A stretch of DNA of 64,000 bases, taken from the IMG/VR virus record IMGVR_UViG_3300045988_175002. The stretch is one strand, 5' to 3'. The notes beneath the pieces were generated by a model. That model did not search any database. It was given only the letters and a program-made list of their open reading frames with translations, and was not told the DNA's origin. The DNA is from a virus. This document shows, in pieces, positions 1,731 through 22,017 of this stretch. Made by a program: the position numbers and the translations under genes. Each line of letters begins with the position of its first letter. The stretch's first letter is position 1.

Positions 1731-1760
1731 TTTTCTCCTTAGTAGGATGCAACTTCTTGC

Positions 1761-1781
1761 TGTGTGAACAATTCCAGTATA
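1761..1781 (-). promoter_or_regulatory. conserved promoter/operator-like motif copy M1
   Basis: The plus strand reads tgtgtgaacaattccagtata. The minus strand reads TATACTGGAATTGTTCACACA, with TATACT as a -10-like hexamer. Confidence 0.55.
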
Positions 1782-1851
1782 TATGATATTAGCGCAAAAC
1801 ACAATCCGATAGAACAATAAGGAAGCGTAGAAACGGTAGTCTTCCAATTTC

Positions 1852-2226
1852 TCAATAGCAGTTATCGCACCAGCTGGTATCACCGCAAAGGTTCTCGTTC
1901 TCCTCGCTGAGAAGGCAACCGCAACCGCTGCAATACATGCAGGCTGGATTGTCGGACGAAGTGAAAGAACCTTCCTTGACAATGTTTCCAGCCAAGTCGG
2001 TGATGGTGTAGATTGCCCGAGTGTCGGCTTCCGGTGCGGGATAGCCGGACATGCCTAGAATCCTGTTGTACACGTTCGTCAGTAGAGTGCGAACGTTTCC
2101 CACCTGACGAGTCCCATTCACAATGGGAGCCGTCAAATGGTCGAAGAATTCTACCGTCGTATCCCACGAATGCTGACCTTCGTGGATTTTAATTTCCAGC
2201 TTTTCCTTGCCGTCCGTGAATCGCAT
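1852..2226 (-). CDS. hypothetical Cys-rich protein (124 aa, C-terminal CxxC...CxxC)
   Basis: ATG with an AGGAAAA ribosome-binding site. The C-terminal CMYCSGCGC...CDNCY suggests a metal-binding ribbon. Confidence 0.45.
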   Translation of the reverse strand: MRFTDGKEKLEIKIHEGQHSWDTTVEFFDHLTAPIVNGTRQVGNVRTLLTNVYNRILGMSGYPAPEADTRAIYTITDLAGNIVKEGSFTSSDNPACMYCSGCGCLLSEENENLCGDTSWCDNCY

Positions 2227-2236
2227 TTTCGTTTTC

Positions 2237-2599
2237 CTACAATTCCCTCATGGCCTTGTCTAAATCGGACACAATCGCGTCATACAGTCCGTCAACATCC
2301 AACGATTCCAGCTTATGCGACGGCAAATCCACGGGAGTGCATTCCCCGTCATCGAAAATCCAGTGTGCGGACGGAACCGTGTATACTCCGCCACGCCAAC
2401 GGTAGGAGCGTCTGCCGTCTCGTTGTGAGTCGGCTACCAGATAGTATTCGACCTGCTTGCCCATGTAACGGTGTTGGAATGCGACTTCGATTCCGTCTCC
2501 GAAGATGGCTCGGGTTGCGTGTGCGCCGGTCACGTAGGGGATTCTGACGAGTTTGTCGATGAGTTTCCGATAGGTGTCTTCGCTGATTTTCGAGTACAT
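2237..2599 (-). CDS. hypothetical protein (120 aa)
   Basis: ATG start. Lies in the operon with 2646..2903. Confidence 0.5.
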   Translation of the reverse strand: MYSKISEDTYRKLIDKLVRIPYVTGAHATRAIFGDGIEVAFQHRYMGKQVEYYLVADSQRDGRRSYRWRGGVYTVPSAHWIFDDGECTPVDLPSHKLESLDVDGLYDAIVSDLDKAMREL

Positions 2600-2645
2600 T
2601 CTGATTGTCCTTTTTCGTGTGGTTGGTTTTTGTGGCGATTGTTTT

Positions 2646-2903
2646 TCAGCAACAGTATTCGTTGACTGCGTTGACGAGTTCAGCCATGCTCATGCTGTAT
2701 ACGTCGCTGTGGTGGGCGTAGACGTCTTTTGCGAAGAGTCTGTTTTGCATGATGGTGCGGGCTTCGGCGCTTTGTGCGAGTTTCACACTTTCGGGGAATG
2801 TGCCTGTGGGGTTGTCGTTGATTTGTTTGGCGTATTCGACTGCTTGTTTTTTGGGCATTTTCTTGACGTTGATTGCGCCGCCGATGTAGTGGATTGCGTA
2901 CAT
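2646..2903 (-). CDS. hypothetical protein (85 aa)
   Basis: ATG at 2901-2903. Lies 28 nt downstream of motif copy M2. Confidence 0.5.
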   Translation of the reverse strand: MYAIHYIGGAINVKKMPKKQAVEYAKQINDNPTGTFPESVKLAQSAEARTIMQNRLFAKDVYAHHSDVYSMSMAELVNAVNEYCC

Positions 2904-2930
2904 GTTATGTGCTCCTTTTGCCTATCGCTC

Positions 2931-2953
2931 TTTGTGTGAACAATTCCACTATA
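2931..2953 (-). promoter_or_regulatory. conserved promoter/operator-like motif copy M2
   Basis: The plus strand reads ttgtgtgaacaattccactata. The minus strand has TGCTATAGT, an extended -10-like sequence. Confidence 0.5.
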
Positions 2954-2980
2954 GCACACTTGAGAGAAACCGCAAAACCC

Positions 2981-3020
2981 CAAAAAACAAAAGCGGGACA
3001 CCAAAAACAGCGTCCCGCTT
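2981..3020 (-). terminator. rho-independent terminator (minus-strand)
   Basis: The stem is agcgggac/gtcccgct. On the minus strand it is followed by TTTGTTTTTT. It lies just downstream of the 3036..3269 ORF. Confidence 0.5.
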
Positions 3021-3035
3021 CTCCTCCGTCAAACC

Positions 3036-3269
3036 TCAATCGGACAAACCGGCACGGGCACGCATCTTGCGTTTAATCTCACTACCCTTGGCGAACAGGC
3101 GCTCCATACGAGCCACGGTCTGCAACGCCTTCTTATACTCCTCCAATCGAGAAGAGATTCGCCAATTACGAGGTTCCGCCAATGGTGCCGACAGGACGCG
3201 GATGGTTTCGTCTTCGCTTTTTACCCAATGCTCGAAGCAGAGTCTATCGGCCAGCTTGTTTTCCACCAT
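3036..3269 (-). CDS. hypothetical protein (77 aa)
   Basis: ORF adjacent to the IS605-like end. It has a weak ribosome-binding site and could instead be IS-flanking sequence. Confidence 0.3.
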   Translation of the reverse strand: MVENKLADRLCFEHWVKSEDETIRVLSAPLAEPRNWRISSRLEEYKKALQTVARMERLFAKGSEIKRKMRARAGLSD

Positions 3270-3301
3270 GTAGCGGATAACGTCATGAACTACCGTGAGG
3301 C

Positions 3302-4624
3302 TTAAGCCGTCACGGTTTCCTGTTTCGCTGAACGCATGGAGAACATACGCAGATTGTCCGCGTATGACTCCGATGCGTTCTCCACAGGCTTGTATTCCCC
3401 TTGTTCCGAGGGTATTTTGTCTGAATATTTCGATTGTCCCATCCAGACCATGGTTTGAGCGGCTTTGACGTCTCTTGGGGCTTTATATCCGCAGTAGGCG
3501 CATTTGTATGTGCGCTGTTTGAGTGGGATTTTGGTTTTCTTGCCGCAGGTGGGGCACAGTTGTGTGGTCGGCTCCCATTTGGAAAGCGTCACCACCTGAC
3601 TTGTATGACGTGCGAGCCGGTTCTTAACGCGGCCAAGGACACTGTGTTGGGTTTTGCGTCCATAACGACGTTGCCAAGCCTTAACCTGTTCATCCTGCAT
3701 AAAGACAATCTCATTGCGCAACAATTCGGCTGTTATCTTGTTCGCGGCGTCATTGAGACGATTCTGCTGTCTCATATATGCCAAACGGATTCTCATACGA
3801 TTACGCCGACGGTTGTTCGACCCCTTTTTCTTACGGTTCAGTTTTCGCTGTTCCCGCTTGAGGCGGTCGGTTTCTCCAACCATGACATCGTATTCCGTTC
3901 CGTCAGAACATGTTATGGCGGTTTCCACGCCCATGTCCAGTCCGATGACGGTGTTCTTCACCGGCGCGAGTTTTTTGGCTTCACGCCTTTTGTTGTATTC
4001 CTCCTTATCCATATAGCATGTGACATGCAAGTGCCATCCATCCGCCTCACTGGTGAGAACGGCTTTCGCTTGTTCCCAGCCTTCCAATTGTTTGACGCCA
4101 CGCACACGAACCCAGCCGGGAATATTCTGGATTCTCGCCTTTTGTCCACGTATGCGATAAGTGGTCTCCGGTTGCGGAAGCCCAAGAGACCTGACTTCGT
4201 TGGTGAATCCAACATTGCCGACCTTGCGCCCTTGCTTTTTGAGGGTGGCGAGCGTCTTGATGTTGGAACGGATGGTTTTGACCAAAGACTGCTTCATCTG
4301 CGAGCCAAGCGTCCGGTACTCGCGTTCGTCCATCATGCCGTCCTTGGTTTTCACGAGGACGTTTTTCCTTGGCTTGTAGGAGAGCGGGTCTCCGCTGGCT
4401 ATGCATTCGTTCCACAGCCATTTCGCTTCCAAGAACACGCGGACCAGTGCCTCACGCTGGGTGTGGGATAGTTTGTTGCCCACGATTTTCAAATCGAATG
4501 TGGAGCAGGTCTGCGTTTTCCTTTTGGCTTTGGTCGCCTTGATGGATTCTCTGATTCTGCGGTTCTTGTCCAGCCTTGCCTCTTCGGAGGTTCTGCGCGG
4601 CGAGCCGATGAGACTGACCGTCAT
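3302..4624 (-). CDS. tnpB: IS605 OrfB / TnpB-family RNA-guided endonuclease-like transposase accessory protein
   Basis: 440 aa. C-terminal zinc ribbon CPTCGKK...CAYCGYKAPRDVKAAQ, typical of TnpB/OrfB_Zn_ribbon. RuvC-like D/E residues are present and the overall organisation matches IS605 OrfB. Confidence 0.8.
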   Translation of the reverse strand: MTVSLIGSPRRTSEEARLDKNRRIRESIKATKAKRKTQTCSTFDLKIVGNKLSHTQREALVRVFLEAKWLWNECIASGDPLSYKPRKNVLVKTKDGMMDEREYRTLGSQMKQSLVKTIRSNIKTLATLKKQGRKVGNVGFTNEVRSLGLPQPETTYRIRGQKARIQNIPGWVRVRGVKQLEGWEQAKAVLTSEADGWHLHVTCYMDKEEYNKRREAKKLAPVKNTVIGLDMGVETAITCSDGTEYDVMVGETDRLKREQRKLNRKKKGSNNRRRNRMRIRLAYMRQQNRLNDAANKITAELLRNEIVFMQDEQVKAWQRRYGRKTQHSVLGRVKNRLARHTSQVVTLSKWEPTTQLCPTCGKKTKIPLKQRTYKCAYCGYKAPRDVKAAQTMVWMGQSKYSDKIPSEQGEYKPVENASESYADNLRMFSMRSAKQETVTA

Positions 4625-4676
4625 GCTAACACCTCCGAATCTGCTAGACTGCTGTTAGCATGATTATAGCATAGAG

Positions 4677-5159
4677 GTGCGAGACATGGACTCCAACGAA
4701 TACAAACCCAAAGCGTCAGCGAAGGTACGAACCAGATACCATATCGTGCTGGTCACAAAATACCGCAAGCGTGCCCTTGAGGGGATAGAGGAAGACGCCA
4801 TTGCCAGCATCCGCGAAGCCGAACAGCGCTCACGGTTCACAATCCACCGAATCAACACAGGCGACGGAAACCATGTACACATGCTCGTCAGTGTCCCACC
4901 AGACGAAACCATCAGCGGAACCGTCAGCCGAATCAAACAACTCACCACACATGAACTATGGGGCAAGCACCCCGACCATCTCAGACGCTACTACTGGGGA
5001 AAGCACCATAAGCTATGGTCTGCGGGATACTATTGCGAAACCGTGGGAAGAAACAGCGAGAGCATAATCGAACGCTACATAGACGAACAACAACAGGCAG
5101 GGCGATTCATCCGCGACACTGAAGATGACGCGGCTTTCTCGCCAAAACAAAAAAGGTAA
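4677..5159 (+). CDS. tnpA: IS200-family Y1 (HuH) transposase TnpA
   Basis: 160 aa. HVHMLVSVPP is the HuH motif. Conserved Y, YIxxQ and a ~150-aa size are typical of IS200 TnpA. Confidence 0.85.
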   Translation: MRDMDSNEYKPKASAKVRTRYHIVLVTKYRKRALEGIEEDAIASIREAEQRSRFTIHRINTGDGNHVHMLVSVPPDETISGTVSRIKQLTTHELWGKHPDHLRRYYWGKHHKLWSAGYYCETVGRNSESIIERYIDEQQQAGRFIRDTEDDAAFSPKQKR

Positions 5160-5234
5160 ACGAGGTTGGCAGTCCACTTTTTGGTAAGACTGTTGATTGC
5201 GTCGTTGTCCATGGTTTCTCCTTCTCGGCATATC

Positions 5235-5256
5235 TTGTGTGAACAATTCCAGTATA
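5235..5256 (-). promoter_or_regulatory. conserved promoter/operator-like motif copy M3
   Basis: ttgtgtgaacaattccagtata. The downstream start codon at 5212 opens only a 46-codon ORF that runs into the IS605 end, so the cargo is probably disrupted by the IS. Confidence 0.5.
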
Positions 5257-5371
5257 GCCTAAGTTGAGATAAAACACAACACGCAACCAAGCCAAAACGA
5301 AGACGCAATCCCCGCCCATACGAAAAAAGGAATACGCCCACATGATTTTCCTGCGGGCGTATTCCCATGTT

Positions 5372-5680
5372 TTAGTTCAGAAGTCCGGAGCGATACAGAA
5401 TCCTGCGGATATTGATGCTGTGGACGAAAGCGGTGTCAGGCTGTCCAACGAAGTCGGCAAGCTGCTCGTCGGAGCAAGTCTCGTCAACGGCGGCATCCAA
5501 AACCACCTCGGTCGGAGAGTCGAACATCCTACAGCCGACGCCGTCATGCCCCTCAATGTGCTCGAACAAGGCGAAGTATGTCATGTTCTCGTCTGCAACA
5601 CGCAACATGACATAGGAGGTATTGCCGTTGTGGAAGATGTTGTAGTCTGCTGCGCCGAATCGTGCGAAATACTCGTTCAT
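5372..5680 (-). CDS. hypothetical protein (102 aa)
   Basis: ATG at 5678-5680 with an AGAGAAAGAG ribosome-binding site. Lies 21 nt downstream of motif M4. Confidence 0.5.
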   Translation of the reverse strand: MNEYFARFGAADYNIFHNGNTSYVMLRVADENMTYFALFEHIEGHDGVGCRMFDSPTEVVLDAAVDETCSDEQLADFVGQPDTAFVHSINIRRILYRSGLLN

Positions 5681-5700
5681 TTTGGCTCTTTCTCTCATAT

Positions 5701-5722
5701 TTGTGTGAACAATTCCAGTATA
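5701..5722 (-). promoter_or_regulatory. conserved promoter/operator-like motif copy M4
   Basis: ttgtgtgaacaattccagtata. The minus strand has TGCTATACT (extended -10-like). Confidence 0.55.
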
Positions 5723-5857
5723 GCATATTTGAGAGAAAGAGCAAAAACACAAAACACAAAAAGCCGCGCAAACGCAAAAGCATCCACACGACTCGATATT
5801 TTTTCACCACTATACGGAGGGCGGTGCGGTTCCCTCCGCCGCAGTAGGTGCTACCGA

Positions 5858-6154
5858 TTAGTCGTAGTCCGACGGTTCACCATTGACATAGTTCCAAAAC
5901 TGGTCGAAGGCATATTGCGCGGTATCCTCATACCGGCATGGCTTCGGCTGTGCGTTCTTTTCCTGCTCTTTCTGCTCTATCAACTGGTCTATTTGGCTTT
6001 GCTCATTGCGGTGCTGCCATGAAAGTGGTTCGTTGCCTTGGGCTAGGTTCTCATACACCGTGTATTCGTGCCCGCGATAGCTGTAGACAAGATAGACCAT
6101 ATGTGCGTCGTATCCGTGCCCGTAGTATTTTCTGATAAATGTCGCTTTTCGCAT
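5858..6154 (-). CDS. hypothetical protein (98 aa, Tyr/His-rich)
   Basis: ATG at 6152-6154, immediately after the stop of the upstream gene. Co-transcribed with 6166..7086. Confidence 0.45.
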   Translation of the reverse strand: MRKATFIRKYYGHGYDAHMVYLVYSYRGHEYTVYENLAQGNEPLSWQHRNEQSQIDQLIEQKEQEKNAQPKPCRYEDTAQYAFDQFWNYVNGEPSDYD

Positions 6155-6165
6155 TGCTATCCCTT

Positions 6166-7086
6166 TCAACCAATCTCGCGCTCGGCACGCTCCCAAATCT
6201 TCCGGCGAATCTCACTATCCTTGGAAAACATGGAGCCAAGCTCCAACACTTGACGGACGGCTTCGCGGTATTCCTCCAAACGGTCATGCAAGGCCATATA
6301 CGCGTCGCTTTCGAAAGCCTGATTGATGAACGAGTCCGGCATGTCACGCATGACCTTGACCAGCCTGTAACGTCCCACCTCGTCCGCGTTCTCCCAAGCG
6401 TTCATGACACGCTCACAAGTGGCCCACTGCGGCTTGCAGGCCAGCACATGCGCCACATCCTGCGGGTTAAGACGGGACAACACTTCATCCACCTTGCCGT
6501 CTTCGGTCAGAAGAGCCGCCTGAACGCGAATCTGACTGTTGGGATTGTCCAGCCAATGTTCGACACATTCCTTATCGAAGTTATGGTTATAGATAAGGGT
6601 TTTGACCACACGCTCGTCCGACTCCTCGAAGAAGAGGTGAGGGTCTGCGTTCTTTGCCGCCATGAGTCGAATCTGATAATCCTCGTCGTGGGACAAACCG
6701 TTCGACGTTTCCTTGTCGAGCTTGCTGAACTTGTTGAGCATTGTGGCCGCTTTCTTGCGAATCTCGGCGCTCCTGTCATGTAGGGCAACTTTGGATAGTT
6801 CCTTGACGGGTAGTTTCTTTTCGTCGTATACGCGCCAGTCGAAGTAGTAGTTACGGACTTTCAGGGGTAGTTCGGAGAGTTTGCCGGAGTTGAAATGCTG
6901 TCTGATGTTGGCGAGTTCATCTTCGCCTGTTTGGGTGAGAGTCCAGTCGCCCGTCTCGTTTTCCTGAATGAGTCCGGCTTTGGCGAGTTTGGTGATGTCG
7001 CGGTCGGGGAATACTCGGCGTTCGGGTTCGCGCTCGAATCGCATGAATTCGTAGACTGCGGTTTCGTTCCAGTTGATGTCGCTCAT
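6166..7086 (-). CDS. hypothetical protein with HEAT/PBS-lyase-like repeats (306 aa)
   Basis: ATG at 7084-7086 with a GGAGCAAAAAAATG ribosome-binding site. Repeated DxxxxIRxxAA segments suggest alpha-helical HEAT-like repeats. Confidence 0.5.
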   Translation of the reverse strand: MSDINWNETAVYEFMRFEREPERRVFPDRDITKLAKAGLIQENETGDWTLTQTGEDELANIRQHFNSGKLSELPLKVRNYYFDWRVYDEKKLPVKELSKVALHDRSAEIRKKAATMLNKFSKLDKETSNGLSHDEDYQIRLMAAKNADPHLFFEESDERVVKTLIYNHNFDKECVEHWLDNPNSQIRVQAALLTEDGKVDEVLSRLNPQDVAHVLACKPQWATCERVMNAWENADEVGRYRLVKVMRDMPDSFINQAFESDAYMALHDRLEEYREAVRQVLELGSMFSKDSEIRRKIWERAEREIG

Positions 7087-7112
7087 TTTTTTGCTCCTTG
7101 GCTTCCATATTT

Positions 7113-7134
7113 TTGTGTGAACAATTCCAGTATA
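7113..7134 (-). promoter_or_regulatory. conserved promoter/operator-like motif copy M5
   Basis: ttgtgtgaacaattccagtata; lies 27 nt upstream of the start at 7086. Confidence 0.55.
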
Positions 7135-7199
7135 CAATTTGCTTGGACAAAACACGCTACAAAACAAAAAGCGGGAACTACAGCAACAAGAGTGTGATT

Positions 7200-8690
7200 T
7201 CAGACAGTATTCTGTAGCACTGTCTGAATAATCTTGACCTCCGTCGGAGTCCCCCGCCTATGCGGTTTGTTGCGACATGGAGTAGCCCCACTCGTTTGGG
7301 CGTCGCCCACCAAATGATTGTCATGGTGGACGTATCGGTTCGCATGCTCATTGTTGAGTATGCGAACGATTTCCTGTTTGCGGATGGAACGCCAGCCATT
7401 CTCCCGAGAACGTCTCGAAAGAATATTGCGGCTTGCGTTGATGTCCGCGTGCAGGGTCGTTCCGCAGCATTTGCAACGGAACAAGTTTCTTGTCGGCCTA
7501 TTGTTCCTAGCCGTGTACCCGCAGTGGGAGCATTGTTGGCTGGTGTAGGCGGGATTGATTTCAGTAACGGTGACGCCGTCTAGTTCCTGAATACGTTTCA
7601 GTTTCGCTTCCACTGCGGCTCGACCGGTTCTGGTAAGCAACCGGTTCATCTTATGACTGAGATTCAGGTTACGGAAGTCAAGTTTTTCAACGACGATTTC
7701 CTTGACTTGTTCCTTGCTGAGCTGGTTGAACAGTCGTCCAATCTCATTCCGATAGTAGGCTCGTATGCGCCGTTGTAGATTACGGTATCTTCTAGACTTG
7801 GATGGTTTCACACCATTCTTCTGTAAGGCGCGAGTCAGTTCGATAAGCTCCGTGTCACGCTGTTTCAGCCAGTCGAACATTCGGGTGCCCAACAGTCGGC
7901 CATCGGATAGGGCGAACATGCAATCCATACCCCAGTCCAATCCCAACGTTTCGCCTTGGGTTCGTTTTTCTGCTTTAGGCAAGGTAGTAATCAGCTTTCC
8001 GTTGACACTGCCGTCCAAGTTGAAGCGAATGGTCAGATAGTTCGACAAGGTTTCATTGTTAAGGAAAAGATTCTCGTCCAGTTTACGGTCTGCGAGTATC
8101 GGCACGCGAACCGGCTTGCCGGATTCCAAAGTTGACACGACAGCCCAACGTTCGCACTTGGTGTTCTTCGCGTTCTCTATTCGGGCAATCTTGCCGTCCA
8201 TATCCATGGTTCGGCATTTCGATAAGTCTGGGATTCGGTTTCGACGACGTAGATGTTTCATCAACCAACGAGCCATATAGTGCGTTTTATCATCGGAGTG
8301 CTCATACCATGCGTATCGCAGGTTGATTTCGTACAGGTCACGTTTAAGATTGTCTTCCAAAGTGGAATGGTATACGAGACTACGAAACTCATTCTGACGG
8401 TTCGTCAGCCATGAATCGAAGGTGGCTTTCGCTTGACGGGATACGGAATCCCATTGCCGTTGGGACAAATAGTCAGGAAAGGTTTTAGTGCTCTGCCATG
8501 TGGATAGGCTACCGGTCTCGAACAGTTCACGACACCACTGATTCAGGGAATAGGTTAATCCTTTACGCCATATCGGAAGCAGTCGAAACAGCTTATCCAA
8601 CTTGCCATGATTCATCGGCAATGCCACGCCGTAGGATTTGTGCGCCACACCGGTTTTCATACCACGACGGTATCTACTTGTCGGCATTAT
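7200..8690 (-). CDS. tnpB: TnpB/OrfB-family protein of IS607-type element
   Basis: C-terminal CSHCGYTARNNRPTRNLFRCKCCGTTLHADINASRNI zinc ribbon typical of TnpB. The likely start MPTSRYRR overlaps the tnpA 3' end. The track ORF is extended upstream to 8756. Confidence 0.75.
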   Translation of the reverse strand: MMPTSRYRRGMKTGVAHKSYGVALPMNHGKLDKLFRLLPIWRKGLTYSLNQWCRELFETGSLSTWQSTKTFPDYLSQRQWDSVSRQAKATFDSWLTNRQNEFRSLVYHSTLEDNLKRDLYEINLRYAWYEHSDDKTHYMARWLMKHLRRRNRIPDLSKCRTMDMDGKIARIENAKNTKCERWAVVSTLESGKPVRVPILADRKLDENLFLNNETLSNYLTIRFNLDGSVNGKLITTLPKAEKRTQGETLGLDWGMDCMFALSDGRLLGTRMFDWLKQRDTELIELTRALQKNGVKPSKSRRYRNLQRRIRAYYRNEIGRLFNQLSKEQVKEIVVEKLDFRNLNLSHKMNRLLTRTGRAAVEAKLKRIQELDGVTVTEINPAYTSQQCSHCGYTARNNRPTRNLFRCKCCGTTLHADINASRNILSRRSRENGWRSIRKQEIVRILNNEHANRYVHHDNHLVGDAQTSGATPCRNKPHRRGTPTEVKIIQTVLQNTV

Positions 8691-9252: not shown

Positions 9253-9331
9253 ACTTCCATGATACTATAGAATACTAGAAAAAGCCAGTAAATCAGAAAC
9301 TAGTTGCGAGACCATATCCCCGCAAATCCAA

Positions 9332-9745: not shown

Positions 9746-9756
9746 TTTTTGTCCTT

Positions 9757-10134
9757 TCAGCGAGTGTATCCGATTTTCCTCAGCACATGGTCTTCGGGGC
9801 TGGAGAGACGCTTGATGACCTCTTCCGGCGTGAGACTGATTTGCTTCGTGTGGAGCAGGGGTTGGAACGAGCAGGTGCGGAGGAACTTCGTGACCACGCC
9901 GTCTCTGCTCATGCGGGAAGGAATCTTCTGGTTTCGATACTGGCGGTAGGTGAAGCGGAGCCAACGAATCGCCTGTTTCGAGTCGATGGTCTTCACATGG
10001 GGATTATCGGCGTAGGCTTTCACCCAGTTATTGCGTTCGGTGACGCTATGGAAAATCTGGATTAGGGGAATGTTGTTGTCAGGGTCGAGCTTCTGGTTGG
10101 GATGGTTGACGATGGCGGCGTAGTAGGTGTTCAT
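9757..10134 (-). CDS. hypothetical protein (125 aa)
   Basis: ATG at 10132-10134. Lies 28 nt downstream of motif M6. Confidence 0.45.
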   Translation of the reverse strand: MNTYYAAIVNHPNQKLDPDNNIPLIQIFHSVTERNNWVKAYADNPHVKTIDSKQAIRWLRFTYRQYRNQKIPSRMSRDGVVTKFLRTCSFQPLLHTKQISLTPEEVIKRLSSPEDHVLRKIGYTR

Positions 10135-10161
10135 GGGTCGCTCCTTTTGTAGACCAAGTTT

Positions 10162-10183
10162 TTGTGTGAACAATCCCAGTATA
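10162..10183 (-). promoter_or_regulatory. conserved promoter/operator-like motif copy M6
   Basis: ttgtgtgaacaatcccagtata (one mismatch). Confidence 0.5.
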
Positions 10184-10226
10184 TATTCAAGAATAGCAAT
10201 CACGCAAGTCGGCACGTCAAAACAAA

Positions 10227-10589
10227 CTACCCAATCACACAAAAAACCAGCAAGCCTATCAATACAATAATCGACAGATAGGCCAGAACCATAAGAGACA
10301 ATCCAACCCGCAGACCCCATCCCCAAGCCGATACGCGAGAATCATTCTCCCTACCGACCTCTTCCATTTTGCGGCTCCAAGCCTGAGCCTTATCAGTCAA
10401 CTCGTTCTGCGTGAGCAAATTGCCGTCACGGTCGAACGGGCTAGGCTGATACGGCAACGGTAGAAGAATCCCCTCCATATCCGATGGTGGCAATACCGGA
10501 TACGGTGGAATATTATGCCGCCAGATTTGCTCGGAACGGCGCAACCCCATACGGAACGCCGGATTACGCACCGTGTCCAATAAACCCAT
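10227..10589 (-). CDS. hypothetical membrane protein (120 aa, C-terminal TM helix)
   Basis: ATG start. The C-terminal LSLMVLAYLSIIVLIGLLVFCVIG is a hydrophobic helix. Confidence 0.4.
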   Translation of the reverse strand: MGLLDTVRNPAFRMGLRRSEQIWRHNIPPYPVLPPSDMEGILLPLPYQPSPFDRDGNLLTQNELTDKAQAWSRKMEEVGRENDSRVSAWGWGLRVGLSLMVLAYLSIIVLIGLLVFCVIG

Positions 10590-10598
10590 TTTCTACTC

Positions 10599-11009
10599 CT
10601 ATCGAAAAGTTAACGGCTCTTCGCCTATCCTCACAAGCAACTCGTTCAGTTCAGGTATGAGAATATCCGTTCCAAGCTCTTCAATATCATGCTTGGTGAG
10701 GTAGAACACTTGCCCGTCCTTGTAATGCAACATGCCGTCAGTGTCGAACGATAGGCTTTCGAACATGGTTTCGACCATATCCCAGAACAGGTTTCCGAAC
10801 TGTTCTTTGGTTCGTTCGTCTTTCAGAACCGTATATACGGCGTGGGAGTATTGTTCGCCACGTTTCAAGTCCTTGTTCAGGCAACGTTCACAACGATGGT
10901 ATCCGTCCAAGTCTTTCACACAGTCGGAACATAACGGTCGGGAGCATTCGGGGCAGAGGATAGTCCACTTGTTTGTTTTGCAGATTGCGCAGATTCCGTT
11001 GTTCAGCAC
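10599..11009 (-). CDS. hypothetical zinc-ribbon protein (136 aa)
   Basis: GTG start with an AAGGAG ribosome-binding site 8 nt upstream. The N-terminus has CAICK...CPECS...CSDC...CERC, suggesting a double zinc ribbon. Confidence 0.45.
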   Translation of the reverse strand: MLNNGICAICKTNKWTILCPECSRPLCSDCVKDLDGYHRCERCLNKDLKRGEQYSHAVYTVLKDERTKEQFGNLFWDMVETMFESLSFDTDGMLHYKDGQVFYLTKHDIEELGTDILIPELNELLVRIGEEPLTFR

Positions 11010-11059
11010 GTCGAATGCTCCTTACCGTAGTAGGTGTGATTGCTTCCAGATTAACTCAA

Positions 11060-11782
11060 TCAGTCCAACGGTTTGCCACGTCCGACAATCTTCTTACCGT
11101 CCGCGTTCCGCAACCATGCCAAGCCGTGACTATAGGAAACAACACCAGCTTTGACGGTCGGATTCTGCTGGAACGTGTAATAAACTTCCACCAGTCCGCC
11201 GCCACCGTTCGCTTGCAGAATACGAATCCTGTAATCCTTTTCCACGGCTTTGATGGCCATATCCCGTTCGAGTTCATCAAACCAACCGTAAAGTGGGAGC
11301 ATGGCGAAAGCGGCTAATACTCCTACGGTGATGAACCGCCAATATGTTTTGGCCTCTACCAGTAGGGCGATTACCGCCACGAGAACGCCGATGATGGCGA
11401 TTCCGGCCACGAGTTGACGCCAATTGCCGTTGCAATCGTATTCGACGGGAGCATAGGGATTGGTGAGGGTCGTCGCGGATTTGACGGGTTTTGACTGTTT
11501 GCGTGGGATGGTCGGCTTGTAGGTCTTCGGTTCTTTCGTGGACACGGTTTCGGTCTTTGCTTTAGGTTCCGTCTTGACTGTAGGGTCGTTCTTCGGTTCG
11601 ATGGGCTTGGGCATGTTCTTCTTTTCAGCTTCCATGGGCGGTGCCGGTGGTTTCAACATTTTCCGTTCCGTCTCTTTGACTACTCTTTGAAGTTCGATGG
11701 TGGTGGACGAGTCGGGTTCGTCCATCGGTTCCTGACCTAACGTCATGAGGTCGTTTTCCAGTGAGATATCCCGCTCTTTCAT
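11060..11782 (-). CDS. hypothetical membrane protein with Pro/Lys-rich N-terminal region (240 aa)
   Basis: ATG start. A PAPPMEAEKKNMPKPIEPK low-complexity stretch is followed by two TM helices (IAIIGVLVAVIALLV and ITVGVLAAFAMLPLYGW). Confidence 0.5.
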   Translation of the reverse strand: MKERDISLENDLMTLGQEPMDEPDSSTTIELQRVVKETERKMLKPPAPPMEAEKKNMPKPIEPKNDPTVKTEPKAKTETVSTKEPKTYKPTIPRKQSKPVKSATTLTNPYAPVEYDCNGNWRQLVAGIAIIGVLVAVIALLVEAKTYWRFITVGVLAAFAMLPLYGWFDELERDMAIKAVEKDYRIRILQANGGGGLVEVYYTFQQNPTVKAGVVSYSHGLAWLRNADGKKIVGRGKPLD

Positions 11783-11814
11783 GCAAGGCTTCCTTTCTTT
11801 TTTGTCGGATATGA

Positions 11815-11852
11815 GAGAGGGGAGAAGCGGTCTGGATGACGCTTCTCCCCGA
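11815..11852. terminator. GC-rich hairpin / probable terminator
   Basis: ggggagaagcg...cgcttctcccc is a perfect 11-bp stem. It lies downstream of the 11868..12176 gene. Confidence 0.4.
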
Positions 11853-11867
11853 GGCTTTTAGCGTGGG

Positions 11868-12176
11868 TCAGAGGATTCGGGTTCCCTTGCGGGTGACGAG
11901 CATGATTCTGTTTTCGTGACGGTTCTCGAAAACGTCCCAATTGCCGCTCAGGACAGCCAAGCACACGTTGCCTTTGATGAGGTTCCAACGTTCGTCGCAG
12001 TTGGATACGACGTGCTTCCAGTTGATTGGATTGGGCTTGTGGTGGGAGGTTTCCACGATGGCTTCGTTCATGGGCCTGTCTGCGTAGGTGTGGTCGTAGG
12101 TGTTGTCGCTTGCGACGATGCTGATGGTGCCGTTGTCGTGGAAGATTGGCTGGTAGTAGGTTTTGGTGTCGTTCAT
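11868..12176 (-). CDS. hypothetical protein (102 aa)
   Basis: ATG at 12174-12176 with a GGAGAACAAATG ribosome-binding site. Lies 29 nt downstream of motif M7. Confidence 0.45.
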   Translation of the reverse strand: MNDTKTYYQPIFHDNGTISIVASDNTYDHTYADRPMNEAIVETSHHKPNPINWKHVVSNCDERWNLIKGNVCLAVLSGNWDVFENRHENRIMLVTRKGTRIL

Positions 12177-12204
12177 TTGTTCTCCTTGGTTGGCTCCGCC
12201 TGTT

Positions 12205-12226
12205 TTATGTGGACATTTCCAGTATA
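12205..12226 (-). promoter_or_regulatory. conserved promoter/operator-like motif copy M7 (degenerate)
   Basis: ttatgtggacatttccagtata. The minus strand has TGCTATACT. Confidence 0.4.
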
Positions 12227-12304
12227 GCACGTTTGGATAAATATACAAAACAAGACACGTCCACACAAAAAGCCCCGCCAAAACGACGGGGCCACAAACC
12301 AAAA

Positions 12305-12505
12305 CTATCGATTCATGCTCAATCGAACCTTGACCGCGACGACCAGCAACGCGACTATGAGGGCGCAGACCGACATGACGCCGAACGTGCGGCCAAACGT
12401 GAACAGCCAAGTGCCGAACGAGTAGATGCCGAACACGACTGCGGTTGCCATCCCACCGAAAGCGATGGTGACAAGCGTCATGAGCAGAACATCCTTGATA
12501 TGCAT
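12305..12505 (-). CDS. hypothetical small membrane protein (66 aa, two TM helices)
   Basis: ATG with a GGAGAAAAAATG ribosome-binding site. The sequence is hydrophobic throughout. Confidence 0.45.
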   Translation of the reverse strand: MHIKDVLLMTLVTIAFGGMATAVVFGIYSFGTWLFTFGRTFGVMSVCALIVALLVVAVKVRLSMNR

Positions 12506-12543
12506 TTTTTCTCCTTTTGGTGATGGGTTTTACAAACCCTTGT

Positions 12544-12565
12544 TTGTGTGAATAATTCCAGTATA
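12544..12565 (-). promoter_or_regulatory. conserved promoter/operator-like motif copy M8
   Basis: ttgtgtgaataattccagtata. Confidence 0.5.
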
Positions 12566-12639
12566 CATCATAGTGGGGCATGACACGCCAAACAAAAAGC
12601 GCCCCACCCACCCAAGGGAGAGGCGCTAAAACCCGACGG

Positions 12640-13017
12640 TCAGAACTCATAATCGCAATCGGAATCGAGATACCATTTGTCCTCGTAACCCCAAAGAACA
12701 CGACGGATGGTCGCAGGGTCGTTCAACTCCACGAACTTGGACGCCAGTTCATCCACCGACATGGCGGAAAAAGCCTTGCCAACGGAAGCATAGAATTCAT
12801 CCCATTCCGCCTGTTCGGCGTCGGGATCGACCAGCTCACGGAACCGTCCGGCAAGCTTCTCGTCCGGTAGGGAGGCTTCCGCAAAATTCGTGTCCTCTAT
12901 GTCCAGCCAAGTGTTGAAACACTTGTCGGCCAACGCTTCAACCGGAATGGTGAGGATGCTGGAATACGTGCCCTTCCAAGCGTTTTTCTTGAAGAAGCTA
13001 ACGTCTCGTGCCTTCAT
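12640..13017 (-). CDS. hypothetical acidic protein (125 aa)
   Basis: Internal ATG at 13015-13017 with an AGGAAG ribosome-binding site. The track ORF begins at an alternative GTG at 13026. Confidence 0.45.
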   Translation of the reverse strand: MKARDVSFFKKNAWKGTYSSILTIPVEALADKCFNTWLDIEDTNFAEASLPDEKLAGRFRELVDPDAEQAEWDEFYASVGKAFSAMSVDELASKFVELNDPATIRRVLWGYEDKWYLDSDCDYEF

Positions 13018-13029
13018 TTTTCTCACTTC

Positions 13030-13524
13030 CTATTCTTCGTCACTGTCCGCCTGACGGAGCGGAACGATACGGTTCCACTGTTCCTCATACTTGTCCTCCA
13101 CATCCTTGGGACCATTGTCCAGCAGTTCGTTCAACGTGGCTCGTCCTACGTCGCTGAGACGGCTGATATTGCGGAGGATGTTCGCCACGTCGTCGGCTTC
13201 GTATAATTTGTTGCGATTGTCCAAAAGTTCCTGATATCGCGAGTCGGAGAGGTTCCAAAGATAGTCTTCCAGCAGTTTCCAGTCCTCCTTTTCGGCAGAG
13301 GGTACTGGAATCGGCTTGGTGAGCCGCCAATCTTCGAGAATGTCCGCCCAAAGGTCGGTCTTGACATTGTATTCGCCAAGGTCTTCCTCGTGGGTGAGTT
13401 TTTCGATTCGCTGTTCTTCGCCATCCTCGTCCAAGTAGTCTATTGTGAGATATTCACTATCCACTGACAGTGTGGAGAGTTCGCGTAGTTTGGTGATTTT
13501 GAGGTTGGTGATTGTGTTAATCAT
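13030..13524 (-). CDS. hypothetical acidic protein (164 aa)
   Basis: ATG at 13522-13524. Lies 30 nt downstream of motif M9. Confidence 0.5.
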   Translation of the reverse strand: MINTITNLKITKLRELSTLSVDSEYLTIDYLDEDGEEQRIEKLTHEEDLGEYNVKTDLWADILEDWRLTKPIPVPSAEKEDWKLLEDYLWNLSDSRYQELLDNRNKLYEADDVANILRNISRLSDVGRATLNELLDNGPKDVEDKYEEQWNRIVPLRQADSDEE

Positions 13525-13553
13525 TTTTGTTCCTCCTTGTTGGAACCTATCTT

Positions 13554-13575
13554 TTGTGTGAACAATCCCAGTATA
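13554..13575 (-). promoter_or_regulatory. conserved promoter/operator-like motif copy M9
   Basis: ttgtgtgaacaatcccagtata. Confidence 0.5.
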
Positions 13576-13637
13576 CCATGTTTGTTAGGAAAAACAAAAA
13601 CAGCCCACCTCCCAAAACAAGGAAGCGGGCTGAAAAG

Positions 13638-13880
13638 TCAGGCATTCAGCAAAGCATGGGACGAAACACCCATCTCAGACAAGCCCAAACCCACATTGTT
13701 CGCGTCACTCACACCACGAACGAACCCAGCCTTGCTACCACGGGCGGTGGCGACGCGAGCTGCTTCCAGTTCGAGATTGTCGAAATAGTCGTTGACACGC
13801 TGGCTCTTGCTGGCCACAAGCTCACGACCGGAGGGAATGTCCAAGCTCTTCTTGCGAAGCTCCTCGAAACGTTCGCTCAA
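13638..13880 (-). CDS. hypothetical protein or gene fragment (80 aa, TTG start)
   Basis: ORF with an alternative TTG start immediately inside the IS605 copy-2 left end. An in-frame TAA lies just upstream. It may be the distal gene of the M10 unit, separated from it by the IS. Confidence 0.3.
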   Translation of the reverse strand: MSERFEELRKKSLDIPSGRELVASKSQRVNDYFDNLELEAARVATARGSKAGFVRGVSDANNVGLGLSEMGVSSHALLNA

Positions 13881-13931
13881 ACGTTCGTTGAACGGATTTT
13901 AGGCCGCATTCCCCTTCCGTAAGGGAGGGGT

Positions 13932-14387
13932 CTAGGCCGTCACCCGTTTGTTTTTTCTTCGGTATTTGCGATTCGGTTTCTGCTGGTCGCGTATGTATTT
14001 CCTTACGATTTCCAGAGGTGCGCCGCCGCAGCTGACCACGCAGTAGCTTGGCGACCAGAAGTGGTCCCCCCATAACGCTTGTCTGACCTCGGGCCAGTCC
14101 TGTTCCCGGACGCGTTTGCTGCCGTTGGTCTTAAGGCTCATCACGAGCGTGCTGAGTTGCGTTTTCGGTGGATAGGCGACGAGCAGGTGGGCGTGGTCAT
14201 TGTCGGTCTCGAACTCCTCCAATTCGCATTCGAAACGTTCGCAGACCTCTCGGAACGTGTCCTCCAAGAGTTTTGTGACCCGTGGGGTCATCACTTTGCG
14301 CCGGTATTTCGTAACGAACACGATATGCGCATGCAATTCGTAGACCACATGTCTGCCGGTACGCCAATCATGAGTGTTTTCAGCCAT
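13932..14387 (-). CDS. tnpA: IS200-family Y1 (HuH) transposase TnpA
   Basis: MAENTHDWRTGRHVVYELHAHIVFVTKYRRK... carries the HuH motif (HAHLLVAYPP). Start is ATG at 14385-14387. The track ORF has a spurious N-terminal extension. Confidence 0.8.
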   Translation of the reverse strand: MAENTHDWRTGRHVVYELHAHIVFVTKYRRKVMTPRVTKLLEDTFREVCERFECELEEFETDNDHAHLLVAYPPKTQLSTLVMSLKTNGSKRVREQDWPEVRQALWGDHFWSPSYCVVSCGGAPLEIVRKYIRDQQKPNRKYRRKNKRVTA

Positions 14388-14423
14388 AACCATAATTATA
14401 GACCATGTGATATAGTGGGGTAT

Positions 14424-15755
14424 ATGAGACGCAGCACCAGAACACAGGACGACGAGACATGGCGGGTCGCCGTCATACCCGTCCGCCTGTCCGGTGCCGA
14501 CCACCGCAGGGCGCATGAGGCGTGCCACAAGGCCGCATTGCTATGGAACTTCCTGTTAACCGAAACCCGCGCATATTGGGACGAACATGGGAGTGACCCA
14601 TCCGACAAGGAACTTCGGCATCGCCTGTACGAGAAACAACCCGACCTGCGCGACGGACTGCACGCGCACACCATTCAAGGCGTGTTGGACGGAATGAACG
14701 ACGCGGTAGCGACTTACAGGGAGAACCGTCGCCAAGGCAATATGGACGCGCACGCCCCGCACAGGGCGAAGAACTATCGTCCATTGGACTTCACCGCAGG
14801 ATACGGATGGCGTCCCGCCAACGATGGCAAACATATCGCACTGAGTTTCGGCAGAAACCATAAGCGAATACTTGTACGCATGCCGAACATCTCCGACCCG
14901 AAAACGAACGCTCCCGTACCGGTCGAACGGTGGGGAGCCATGCGCCTGTGCTGGGACCGCAACAAACGCCAATGGAGCCTTCACGTCAGCGTTCCCACAA
15001 GCCGACCGCCGCAAGGCGACCCGAGCAACGTCGCCGCCATCGACGAGGGCATCATCAATCCGATGGCCGTCGCCGTCGAAACCGACGACGCCTACGAAAT
15101 ACTGGTCATCAACGGACGCCACGCGAGAGCCGTCAAACATTACCGCAACACAAGAATCGCCAGCCTTCAGGAGAAACTGTCCCGCTGCGTCAAAGGGTCG
15201 AAACGGTGGCGCAAACTCGACGCGAAACGCAGGCGAATCGAATCGAAAACCTCCGACGCCCTGCGCAACGCCGACCATCAGACCACCCGCAAGGTCTCCG
15301 ACTTCCTTCAGGAGCACGATGCGGGGCGAATCGTAGCCGGGGATGTTCGCGGCATCGAACAAAACACCCGCAAAAACGAGACCCGCCGCGTCAGGAACCG
15401 GAAGAACCAACGCAGACGCCTGTCGCAATGGTCTCGTGGACGACAGGAGAGTCTGCTTGCCCATAAGACCGGCATGACAATCGAGCATATCGACGAATCT
15501 TGGTCGTCCAAGACCTGCCCCGCGTGCCAAACACGCAACCACCCCAATGGGCGTGGATACCACTGCCGCAACTGCGGTTTCACCTGCAACCGTGACGCGG
15601 TGGGCGCAATCAACATTCTGATTCGCGCGAAAAACGGCTCCTACCAGCCGATGGACACGAACAAAACGGTTCATGTCAAATATCTCCGGGCCACGCCAAT
15701 CTTCCAACCGGAAGAACGACGTGAGCATGGAGTAATCCCCGGAACCGGGGCGTGA
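14424..15755 (+). CDS. tnpB: TnpB/OrfB-family protein
   Basis: Start is ATG at 14424 (MRRSTRTQDDETWRVAVIPV...). C-terminal CPACQTRNHPNGRGYHCRNCGFTCNRDAVGAINI zinc ribbon. The track ORF is fused upstream to 14079. Confidence 0.8.
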   Translation: MRRSTRTQDDETWRVAVIPVRLSGADHRRAHEACHKAALLWNFLLTETRAYWDEHGSDPSDKELRHRLYEKQPDLRDGLHAHTIQGVLDGMNDAVATYRENRRQGNMDAHAPHRAKNYRPLDFTAGYGWRPANDGKHIALSFGRNHKRILVRMPNISDPKTNAPVPVERWGAMRLCWDRNKRQWSLHVSVPTSRPPQGDPSNVAAIDEGIINPMAVAVETDDAYEILVINGRHARAVKHYRNTRIASLQEKLSRCVKGSKRWRKLDAKRRRIESKTSDALRNADHQTTRKVSDFLQEHDAGRIVAGDVRGIEQNTRKNETRRVRNRKNQRRRLSQWSRGRQESLLAHKTGMTIEHIDESWSSKTCPACQTRNHPNGRGYHCRNCGFTCNRDAVGAINILIRAKNGSYQPMDTNKTVHVKYLRATPIFQPEERREHGVIPGTGA

Positions 15756-15767
15756 CCTCGTATGAGG

Positions 15768-16412
15768 TCATGTAGCCGTGCCGGAAGCAATCATCTCTGC
15801 GGAAAGCACGGAAGCCCCGACCGTAAGGTCGGGGAGGTTCACTCCACCGCGATAACCATAGTAGAACTTGGCGCGTGGATAATCACGACGCATGTACTGT
15901 TTGCATTCCGTCAGCGTCGGATAGGATTCATGTCTGTAATGCGTTTCGACGTATTCCTTGTTGTTCTCATAGTACGCTTTGGCGTGCTGGTCAATCATGT
16001 CCGCGTAGCTAGTGCGGGCGTGGACTGAGCAGTATAGGTCGATGCTTTGGAAGAGAAGGACTGCGGCGTTCACATCGTCCTCCTCGCCTACGAACATGAC
16101 GGCACGTTCCTCAATCCTTCCGCCACACCGGCTTTCGTGAATGTAGGCGCGGCATTCGTTAGCTTGGGCGATGATGGTCGCAAGGTAGCCTTGCTGATGG
16201 TAGATGGTGGTTTTGCTTACGTTCACGCCACGTTCGATGATTGGCTTGTTCGTGCGGGTGCGGTCGCGTTTCCAGTCTTCGATACGATATTCGTTAATGA
16301 GTTTCTGTGCCCGCTCGAACGCCATTTGCGCCTCATTGTCGCTGGATGCTTCGTTTTCGGCTATTGCCATGAGGTTGTTGATGCGTTCGATGATGCTGTC
16401 GATGTTGCTCAT
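15768..16412 (-). CDS. hypothetical protein (214 aa)
   Basis: ATG at 16410-16412. Lies 29 nt downstream of motif M10. The 3' end overlaps the IS605 copy-2 hairpin, so the C-terminus may be altered by the insertion. Confidence 0.5.
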   Translation of the reverse strand: MSNIDSIIERINNLMAIAENEASSDNEAQMAFERAQKLINEYRIEDWKRDRTRTNKPIIERGVNVSKTTIYHQQGYLATIIAQANECRAYIHESRCGGRIEERAVMFVGEEDDVNAAVLLFQSIDLYCSVHARTSYADMIDQHAKAYYENNKEYVETHYRHESYPTLTECKQYMRRDYPRAKFYYGYRGGVNLPDLTVGASVLSAEMIASGTAT

Positions 16413-16440
16413 TTTTTGCTCCTTGGTTTTTCGACTTTTC

Positions 16441-16462
16441 CTGTGTGAACAATTCCAGTATA
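16441..16462 (-). promoter_or_regulatory. conserved promoter/operator-like motif copy M10
   Basis: ctgtgtgaacaattccagtata. Confidence 0.55.
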
Positions 16463-21427: not shown

Positions 21428-21469
21428 GTCACCATAGTTTGGATATGGCCGATTTTGTTCAATTATATT

Positions 21470-21985: not shown

Positions 21986-22017
21986 AGGACTCCTTTTGTG
22001 TGAGATTTGAGTTTGGA

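Follow-up and report, generated by a model that had tools for sequence, protein, structure and literature searches.

A promoter motif repeated through a gut relative of the Bifidobacterium megaplasmid pMP7017, its probable use as a junction between gene modules, and a possible operator at its start site

The 64,000-nucleotide stretch IMGVR_UViG_3300045988_175002 (the window, meaning throughout this whole stretch of DNA) carries an array of small minus-strand genes that are repeatedly preceded by a short promoter-like motif, in which a −10 element is followed at a fixed distance by a 10-nt box. A search of the whole window for the 22-nt minus-strand consensus TATACTGGAATTGTTCACACAA, with up to three mismatches allowed, returned ten minus-strand matches between 1760 and 16462 and one plus-strand match at 60121; none of 100 dinucleotide-preserving shuffles of the window contained any match. 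A further plus-strand copy, at 37118, was added by a pattern that also admits the form of the motif known from the Bifidobacterium megaplasmid pMP7017, and a looser scan turned up three degenerate (decayed) copies, at 585–606(−), 37023–37044(−) and about 60588(+). Nine of the array copies deviate from the consensus by 0–1 nt and copy 12205 by 3 nt (TATACTGGAAATGTCCACATAA), its box being exactly of the pMP7017 type. An earlier, sequence-only reading of this DNA had listed ten copies, all of which were recovered, with two starts displaced by one position (1760 rather than 1761, and 2932 rather than 2931). Its statement that the copies differ by at most 2 nt fails for copy 12205, and its statement that the motif occurs nowhere else in the 64 kb fails for the two plus-strand copies and the three degenerate ones. 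The main copies are as follows.

1760–1781, minus strand: motif copy heading gene 1476–1730 and the small genes after it
2932–2953, minus strand: motif copy with TATAGT, heading 2646–2903, 2237–2599 and 1852–2226; terminator 3022–2989 on its 5′ side
5235–5256, minus strand: motif copy whose first open reading frame (ORF; ATG at 5212) enters an IS200/IS605 insertion
5701–5722, minus strand: motif copy heading 5372–5680; terminator 5794–5761 on its 5′ side
7113–7134, minus strand: motif copy heading the HEAT-like gene 6166–7086 and gene 5858–6154
10162–10183, minus strand: motif copy heading 9757–10134 and 9332–9745
12205–12226, minus strand: motif copy with the pMP7017-type box GTCCACATAA, heading 11868–12176, 11060–11782, 10599–11009 and 10227–10589; terminator 12293–12271 on its 5′ side
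12544–12565, minus strand: motif copy with box ATTCACACAA, heading a 66-aa membrane-like ORF, 12305–12505
13554–13575, minus strand: motif copy with a GGGATT discriminator, heading 13030–13524 and 12640–13017; strong terminator hairpin 13632–13601 just 5′
16441–16462, minus strand: motif copy TATACTGGAATTGTTCACACAG, heading the DUF2786/DUF7168 gene 15768–16412; orthologous to the pMP7017 promoter 28269(−) before RS00155
37118–37139, plus strand: weaker copy TATACTGGAAACGTCCACAAAA, orthologous to the pMP7017 promoter 56049(−), TACAGTGAAAACGTCCACATAA
60121–60142, plus strand: weaker copy TATACTAGAAGCGTTCACACAA, heading 60173–60544; orthologous to the pMP7017 promoter 35175(−) before RS00215
585–606, minus strand: degenerate copy TAGAGTGAGATAGCCCACACCA, 14 nt 5′ of the ATG of gene 325–570

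The anatomy of the motif was read from an ungapped comparison of 38 copies, 12 from the window and 26 from pMP7017. The −10 hexamer is TATACT, an assignment already made in the sequence-only reading and in agreement with RNA-seq-guided promoter mapping of the homologous pMP7017 motif (PMC10832533). An extended −10, with TGn directly 5′ of the hexamer, had been noted in several window copies and is present in 6 of the 12 (18 of 26 in pMP7017), and the only recurrent −35 element is TTG, separated by a 16–18 bp spacer, in 9/12 window and 11/26 pMP7017 copies. The hexamer is followed by a 6-nt, A/T-rich discriminator with G as its first base (GGAATT in the window vs. GAATAT in pMP7017) and then by the box GTYCACAYAA, which reads GTTCACACAA in the window and GTCCACATAA in pMP7017; the gap of 6 nt between TATACT and box is fixed in both. 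Assuming the usual 7-nt distance from the −10, the first G of the box is the predicted +1. A 16-bp stretch of the motif reads GGAATTGTTCACACAA, and when the copies are aligned with their flanks the conserved stretch amounts to about 24–26 nt (ATGnTATACTGGAATTGTTCACACAAAA), outside of which a repeat finder gives identities down to 60–70%. The invariant part, placed earlier at +1 to about +20, thus falls on approximately −6 to +10 and is somewhat shorter. In all 12 window copies a start codon follows on the same strand, 20–38 nt beyond the motif end (48 nt for copy 37118), with a Shine–Dalgarno sequence between, the plus-strand copies 37118 and 60121 included; the AGGAG-like Shine–Dalgarno sequences had been correctly recognized, and the recount shortens the 21–39 nt given for the distance. 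The upstream flanks hold T-rich sequence and hairpins, and terminator-like hairpins lie 25–70 nt upstream of seven of the ten array copies, so that the array is a chain of terminator–promoter–ORF modules.

Related metagenome DNA (822 kb) contains 396 motif matches, in which the box is GTTCACACAA 232 times, GTCCACACAA 26 times, GTTCACATAA 22 times and GTCCACATTA 14 times; all four combinations of pyrimidines at box positions 3 and 8 are present in the window lineage. These counts reduce the core to TATACT-G-N5-GTYCACAYAA. The box is tightly coupled to the −10: in the same DNA, 187 distinct box contexts have a −10 at 6 nt and 9 do not, several of the latter showing a −10 at 7 nt instead. The orthologous copies provide only 25 distinct ungapped variants, among which divergence is 0.8% in the downstream flank against 1.3% in the box, so that the functional site is not delimited by this comparison, and the upstream flank is the most divergent part (9%). 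A dyad symmetry, TATGT-CC-ACATA, can be read from the alignment in pMP7017, whereas the window form keeps only TGT-TC-ACA. The leader is predicted to be unstructured and A/C-rich, with an unpaired probability for the box of 0.70–0.77 vs. 0.75 for a shuffled box.

Two arrangements of the window copies are noted separately. The stretch 37023–37139 forms a divergent promoter pair, composed of the degenerate minus-strand copy 37023–37044 and the good plus-strand copy 37118–37139, which mirrors the divergent pair 56049(−)/56120(+) of pMP7017; both copies keep the GTCCACA/GCCCACA form of the box rather than the GTTCACA usual in the window. At 12259–12268 an inverted box, reading GTCCACACAA on the plus strand, is placed some 40 nt 5′ of the −10 of promoter 12205, within the terminator region upstream of that promoter, and is conserved in two related loci. 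With 0.5 such occurrences expected per window, it could be due to chance or could be a second site for looping.

The ORFs of the array encode orphan proteins of 45–306 aa, many of them acidic. Searches of 30 array proteins against Pfam and PHROG recognized only DUF2786/DUF7168 (phrog_421), the resolvase of an IS607 element and weak zinc-finger and HEAT hints, which bears out the description of the genes served as orphans; no anti-defence function could be assigned to any gene of the window, the same searches giving no evidence either way. The motif-headed genes open with similar A/C-rich codons (ATGAGCAAC, ATGAACGAC, ATGAGCGACATC and similar; ATGARCRAC) in both plasmid lineages, and copies 7113 and 16441 have the whole stretch from the Shine–Dalgarno sequence to codon 5 in common.

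Although filed as a virus, the replicon is a plasmid, as its RepA_C, ParA, VirB4-like and sortase–pilus genes show. Its large ORFs code for a fusion of sortase and RCC1/Cna-B surface protein, a SpaA-type pilin, a flotillin, DnaB, a reverse transcriptase, ParA proteins, RepA_C and a GmrSD-like nuclease. Megablast of the window against phages gave no nucleotide match, and against PLSDB plasmids it matched only two IS200/IS605 elements. An exact look-up of the DnaB protein returned no record. At the protein level, however, the best matches of DnaB are five Bifidobacterium megaplasmids of the pMP7017 family (52–54% identity), and tblastn of the window ORFs shows that window positions 37–64 kb are an inverted syntenic copy of approximately 35–56 kb of pMP7017, with protein identities between the two of 35–69%. 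The syntenic block includes a VirB4-like ATPase (59% identity), a ParA and a DUF1524 gene; RepA (35% identity) matches pMP7017 at about 96–97 kb, outside the block. The GC content is 52.9% in the window vs. 57.4% in pMP7017. The window-variant 21-mer of the motif has no match in PLSDB and a single stray match among 185,579 species-representative genomes, and it recurs in human-gut metagenomes, in over 115 contig stretches. Several of these contigs are 207–224 kb long, among them ERZ779888 NODE-27, OAVL01000010, SKEL01000009, OFMN01000009 and OLPC01000009. Synteny and this distribution together identify the window as a second lineage of pMP7017-like megaplasmids, one that is absent from the deposited plasmids and genomes searched and whose box, GTTCACACAA, is so far found only in human-gut metagenome contigs.

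The motif of pMP7017 was described by Dineen et al. in 2024 as a 34-bp sequence, TATACT GAATAT GTCCACATAA, that overlaps the −10 of 19 promoters within about 60 bp upstream of translation starts (PMC10832533). Six of these promoters are among the most highly expressed in steady-state culture, with 13 further copies, and the motif drives 56 genes, or 24% of the coding capacity; it precedes comparable genes in homologous plasmids, is absent from chromosomes, and was read by the authors as a transcription-factor site (PMC10832533). The architecture is therefore not the undescribed one, "most striking" among unexplained structures, that the sequence-only reading took it to be.

The window copies match the published form, AWAYATGY TATACT GAATATGTCCACATAAAAWA, with TATACT and a CCACATAA-type box at identical spacing, and one degenerate pattern, TATACTGRAWWTGTYCACAYAA (up to three mismatches), retrieves 12 copies from the window and 26 from pMP7017, where at most 0.01 are expected. 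The search across the replicon and related plasmids that had been proposed earlier thus found copies in the window, in pMP7017 and in gut contigs, the pMP7017 variant being confined in PLSDB to six Bifidobacterium megaplasmids, at 15–21 places in each. The two motifs agree base for base in architecture, i.e., (TGn)TATACT, a 6-nt discriminator with leading G, the box, an A-rich leader, a Shine–Dalgarno sequence and ATG. Both are plasmid-restricted and sit on homologous replicons, and each plasmid carries many copies, every one in the same orientation as the gene that follows it. Three motif–gene pairs are orthologous: 16441 with 28269 of pMP7017 (DUF2786), 60121 with 35175 and 37118 with 56049, which places the motif before DUF2786, RS00215 and RS00325 homologues in both. 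They differ in the sequence of the box and discriminator, in the leader after the box (shared among the pMP7017 copies as AATAATCGAAAGAGGAAA and not conserved in the window), and in the weaker −35 and rarer TGn of the window. Moreover, ten window copies lie within 16 kb whereas the pMP7017 copies are dispersed over the whole plasmid rather than in one region, and the window lineage, of lower GC, is known from gut metagenomes only. The shared architecture and the sites before orthologous genes make the window motif a member of the pMP7017 motif family, and we regard it as almost certain that it is a lineage-specific variant of that promoter motif. The agreement extends to each feature that could be compared, and by analogy with pMP7017 the window copies would likewise be transcribed.

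Some copies of pMP7017 itself are irregular. A few units carry box and Shine–Dalgarno sequence with no recognizable −10 (60373, 107051). Downstream of a perfect-box copy at 120545(+) lie 5 kb for which no protein genes are listed (L004, one of the numbered loci of our comparison, 20545–25900; pMP7017 120545–125900). The plasmid is reported to carry tRNA genes and a tmRNA (PMC10832533); if they should lie there, the motif may drive RNA genes also.

Three insertion sequence (IS) elements, all carrying TnpB, interrupt the array and were overlooked in the sequence-only reading, as was the probable role of the motif as a recombination junction. BLAST of window positions 1–17.5 kb against 115 related loci, which also served for the junction mapping below, shows that they are window-specific insertions:

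3183–5155: IS200/IS605-type insertion, with TnpB at 3302–4624 (minus strand) and TnpA at 4686–5159 (plus strand); absent from related plasmids and outside the regulon
7192–9308: IS607-like insertion, with a serine recombinase at 8674–9252 and a TnpB-like gene at 7200–8687; absent from related plasmids
13893–15836: second IS200/IS605-type insertion, with TnpA at 13932–14528 and TnpB at 14538–15755; absent from related plasmids

One of the three recurs at a different site in related locus L099.

The structural junctions between the window and its relatives cluster at the edges of the motif. Several are motif-to-motif deletions with 47–86 nt of overlapping homology (2978–5235, 2992–5700, 5286–5689, 7072–16483, 7088–12601 and 10183–13529). 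In L111 the upstream flank of copy 13554 is joined to the leader and gene of copy 10162, the switch occurring inside TATACTGGGATTGTTCACACAA, and base-level inspection revealed the same chimeric pattern with other pairs of copies in L051, L110 and L081; in these chimeras the homology switches within the 22-nt motif. When 235 distinct motif contexts were classified by their two 70-nt flanks, 104 had a recognizable flank: 61 contexts collinear with the window, 7 chimeras and 36 with one known and one novel flank; in the other 131 both flanks are novel. Some of this pattern would arise in any case, since unrelated modules have nothing but the motif in common. The chimeras nevertheless indicate that genes come and go as whole modules, with the motif as the joint, and a chimera in L010 has its parts in the "wrong" order, which implies reordering rather than simple deletion. 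The repeated promoter is thus very probably the junction at which modules are gained, lost and reordered between related plasmids, a role that is new here.

A comparable behaviour has been described for the PeSL promoter–terminator cassettes of T4-type phages (Arbiol et al. 2010, PMC2839356; Comeau et al. 2014, PMC4122927). In both systems a hyperplastic region of small orphan ORFs is punctuated by copies of a composite of terminator hairpin and conserved promoter, and close relatives differ by insertions, deletions and replacements that are bounded by the repeat, with chimeric repeats at the junctions. However, PeSL belongs to T4-type lytic phages rather than to a conjugative actinobacterial megaplasmid, its sequence is unrelated, and its conserved part lies upstream of the promoter, whereas here it extends to +10. 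Excised mini-circles are part of the definition of PeSL, and the likeness drawn here is one of sequence arrangement; the plasmid appears to work like a PeSL system without belonging to it. With a confidence a little short of even, we would go further and regard the terminator–promoter unit as the plasmid counterpart of the PeSL "mobile regulatory cassette": the start-site box would be read by a plasmid factor, new ORFs would be plugged into one regulon, and the repeats would supply the homology for excision, swapping and reordering of modules. If this is true, it would be without precedent among the systems described for conjugative plasmids.

How the box is read is a separate question. Since the 223 annotated features of pMP7017 include neither a sigma factor nor an RNA polymerase gene, and none was detected in the window, TATACT is most likely read by the host holoenzyme, and we propose that host RNA polymerase with its housekeeping sigma factor would recognize the composite signal of each copy in this way. 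The asymmetric box, at about −6 to +10, would be the operator of a plasmid-encoded regulator that represses or throttles initiation. About a quarter of the plasmid's genes would thereby be tied into one plasmid-private regulon, strong on plasmid entry and damped as the regulator accumulates. Published work left standing the same choice between a shared operator and a conserved leader that the sequence-only reading had offered; the operator is favoured here because ten invariant bases from about +1 to +10, with a lineage-specific discriminator, exceed the known needs of polymerase, and repressors act at this position. The operator for a plasmid-encoded regulator remains a tentative assignment, for which we would claim less than even confidence, and the entire explanation (lineage-specific pMP7017-type promoter motif, operator and module junction) stands evenly balanced between right and wrong in our estimate.

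Several points weigh against the operator. No regulator was identified, and no helix–turn–helix (HTH) protein was detected in the window. In the window lineage the box is no palindrome, whereas the site of a dimeric repressor usually is one. The high steady-state expression of six motif promoters in pMP7017 means that repression is at most partial. The difference between GTCCACATAA and GTTCACACAA could stem from recombinational homogenization rather than from co-evolution with a reader. The RNA-seq-based transcript starts of pMP7017 are stated to be imprecise by about 20 nt (PMC10832533). A generic sigma-70 consensus scan does not call the motif promoters, because their −35 is weak (only TTG), although such a scan is uninformative for an actinobacterium. 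An ImmR/ImmA-like pair was considered as the reader and is not supported, as the equivalent region of pMP7017 has an unrelated 18-bp palindrome and no box.

This pair, an ImmR-like HTH gene and an ImmA/IrrE protease gene, lies beyond the right end of the window (L099 4500–6700; also L041, L074 and L077). It is transcribed divergently from a promoter TAGAAT-N7-GTCCACACAA, which drives a 498-aa acidic protein with RGRPRK AT-hook repeats and no pMP7017 homologue; in L041 the box and its flank are tandemly duplicated. A second candidate, the XRE-HTH gene RS00625 of pMP7017, was rejected for having no homologue in the window or related loci. RS00625 (L004 6877–7530; pMP7017 106877–107530) appears to run from an XRE domain of about 66 aa in frame through the box, Shine–Dalgarno sequence and ATG GTCCACATAAAACTCGAAAAAGGAAAACCCATG at 107051 and continues into the downstream acidic ORF, and may be a mis-annotation or a read-through fusion of modules.

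A dedicated regulator might not be needed at all. The motif could be an optimized strong promoter for host polymerase, with its initial transcribed sequence and leader, kept uniform by concerted evolution as in T4-type early promoters. Crossovers inside the motif would give a ready mechanism of homogenization, steady-state expression from motif promoters is high in pMP7017 (PMC10832533), no regulator was found, either pyrimidine is tolerated at box positions 3 and 8 in both lineages, and the unstructured A/C-rich leader with A/C-rich first codons fits selection for expression. Yet ten invariant bases from +1 far exceed known polymerase contacts, the motif is missing from Bifidobacterium chromosomes, where strong promoters would be equally useful, and most cas genes and a methyltransferase are at or below the expression threshold in pMP7017 despite near-perfect motifs. 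We consider this account unlikely. Reading could also take place on the RNA, the box being the first 10 nt of about 12–26 mRNAs per plasmid and recognized by a plasmid RNA-binding protein, small RNA or ribonuclease that controls stability or translation. The box does begin at the predicted +1 and is predicted unpaired, the pMP7017 copies also share the leader AATAATCGAAAGAGGAAA, and the pMP7017 units with box and no recognizable −10 would suit such a tag. But the untranscribed discriminator is conserved in lineage-specific form, which points to reading at the level of DNA; the unpairing equals that of a shuffled box, so that folding adds nothing; lone boxes are rare in the window lineage; and, except for 12259 in its terminator region, no complementary box that would suggest an antisense RNA was found in the window. 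We hold an RNA-level tag to be improbable.

It is more doubtful still that the motif defines a private promoter class served by a specificity factor of the plasmid's own, whether an alternative sigma, an activator or appropriator of host polymerase, or an RNA polymerase that the plasmid encodes, on the model of the 22-bp T7-like promoters. The contiguous conserved block of 22–26 bp with its weak −35, the restriction to plasmids and the many phage-like genes of pMP7017-type plasmids would agree with this. The lack of sigma and polymerase genes already mentioned does not, TATACT with TGn and a TTG at 16–18 bp constitutes a normal actinobacterial housekeeping promoter, and binding at +1 to +10 is very rare for activators. 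Least credible, to the point of being nearly dismissible, is that the motif is a mobile repeat akin to a miniature inverted-repeat transposable element (MITE), or a target of IS200/IS605 or of a plasmid CRISPR–Cascade, and lies near genes by accident. Its occurrence at structural breakpoints and the three IS elements within the array could be read in this way, as could the type I-E Cascade of pMP7017, which has no annotated cas3 and could be matched to a motif of about 34 bp. However, the copies cease to resemble one another within about 24 nt and lack terminal inverted repeats and target duplications; they keep a fixed orientation and a fixed distance to the Shine–Dalgarno sequence and ATG, and the IS insertion points 3183, 7192 and 13893 are not at motifs. 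The ~24-nt limit and the lack of terminal inverted repeats rule out a MITE or larger repeat, and the gene-proximal regulatory site of the sequence-only reading stands on this point. The motif was likewise rejected as a protospacer for the cas3-less Cascade, as the pMP7017 array is not transcribed, its spacers match phages, and the conservation is neither seed-like nor 6-periodic; no CRISPR array was found in the window.

The proposed operator has parallels in other mobile elements. The CUP-element regulon of the IncN plasmids pKM101/R46 and the ArdK/KorA-type networks of IncN, IncW and IncP plasmids consist of strong repeated promoters with overlapping operators, and the short units transcribed from them carry genes for establishment or anti-restriction (ssb, ard, methylases), under plasmid-wide negative feedback by one plasmid repressor. 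Unlike the motif described here, CUP repeats are hundreds of base pairs long and Kor operators are palindromic; their repressors are known, their hosts are Gram-negative, and no sequence similarity is known. In overlapping −10 and +1 of several promoters the motif has the position of a Kor/ArdK-type operator, and of the dyad symmetry read in pMP7017 the window form keeps only TGT-TC-ACA. The stoperators of Cluster A mycobacteriophages are bound by the element-encoded immunity repressor (gp71 in L5), lie dispersed within transcription units, mostly away from promoters, and block elongation. They resemble the box as many copies of a short asymmetric site on an actinobacterial mobile element, oriented with transcription and lineage-specific in sequence, whereas the box is locked 6–7 nt 3′ of a −10, with which it is coupled in 187 of 196 distinct contexts. 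The start-associated sequences (SAS) of Cluster K mycobacteriophages, too, are short conserved sequences repeated right before many start codons on an actinobacterial mobile element. They include the ribosome-binding site and are not coupled to a −10; here, the Shine–Dalgarno sequence lies 10–30 nt beyond the box.

To our knowledge, the pMP7017-type megaplasmids are the only large conjugative plasmids of bifidobacteria, and about a quarter of their genes depend on one promoter type. They have been reported from approximately 10% of gut microbiome samples, with infants and mothers as the main sources (PMC10832533). A second, diverged lineage with the same architecture and a shifted box narrows the functional core to the pattern given above and offers natural variants with which the reader can be tested. 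If a plasmid regulator binds the box, it would be a master switch of accessory genes and the basis of a ready-made orthogonal expression system for Bifidobacterium. Beyond the published motif, interest attaches to the naturally varied box, to whatever reads it, and to the evidence that promoters mediate the shuffling of modules in a gut megaplasmid.

Further features of the window concern the plasmid rather than the motif. Rfam and tRNA scans of the window found nothing. The establishment or leading region suggested in the sequence-only reading is a conjecture: no oriT or relaxase is known for the pMP7017 family, the replication paper on pMP7017 mentions neither, and MOB-suite types pMP7017 as non-mobilizable. 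The RepA_C gene, 55464–56333(−), is adjoined by tandem repeats at 56573–56615 (22 nt, 2 copies) and 56661–56691 (about 10 nt, 3 copies), both resembling the iterons of a replication origin. A surface-structure cluster occupies 23002–31092, where a 2093-aa protein combining a sortase domain with RCC1 repeats and SdrD/Cna-B domains is followed by a SpaA/Cna-B pilin at 29401–31092; at the equivalent position pMP7017 encodes a class C sortase on its own, together with a giant InlB-repeat protein. Finally, a complete diversity-generating retroelement lies at 19850–23005, with its reverse transcriptase at 19850–21079(−), its template repeat at 21260–21427 and its variable repeat at 22058–22225, the latter being the 3′ end of the DUF6273 gene 22058–23005. 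Of the 19 mismatches between template and variable repeat, 16 are at template adenines, in AAC codons.

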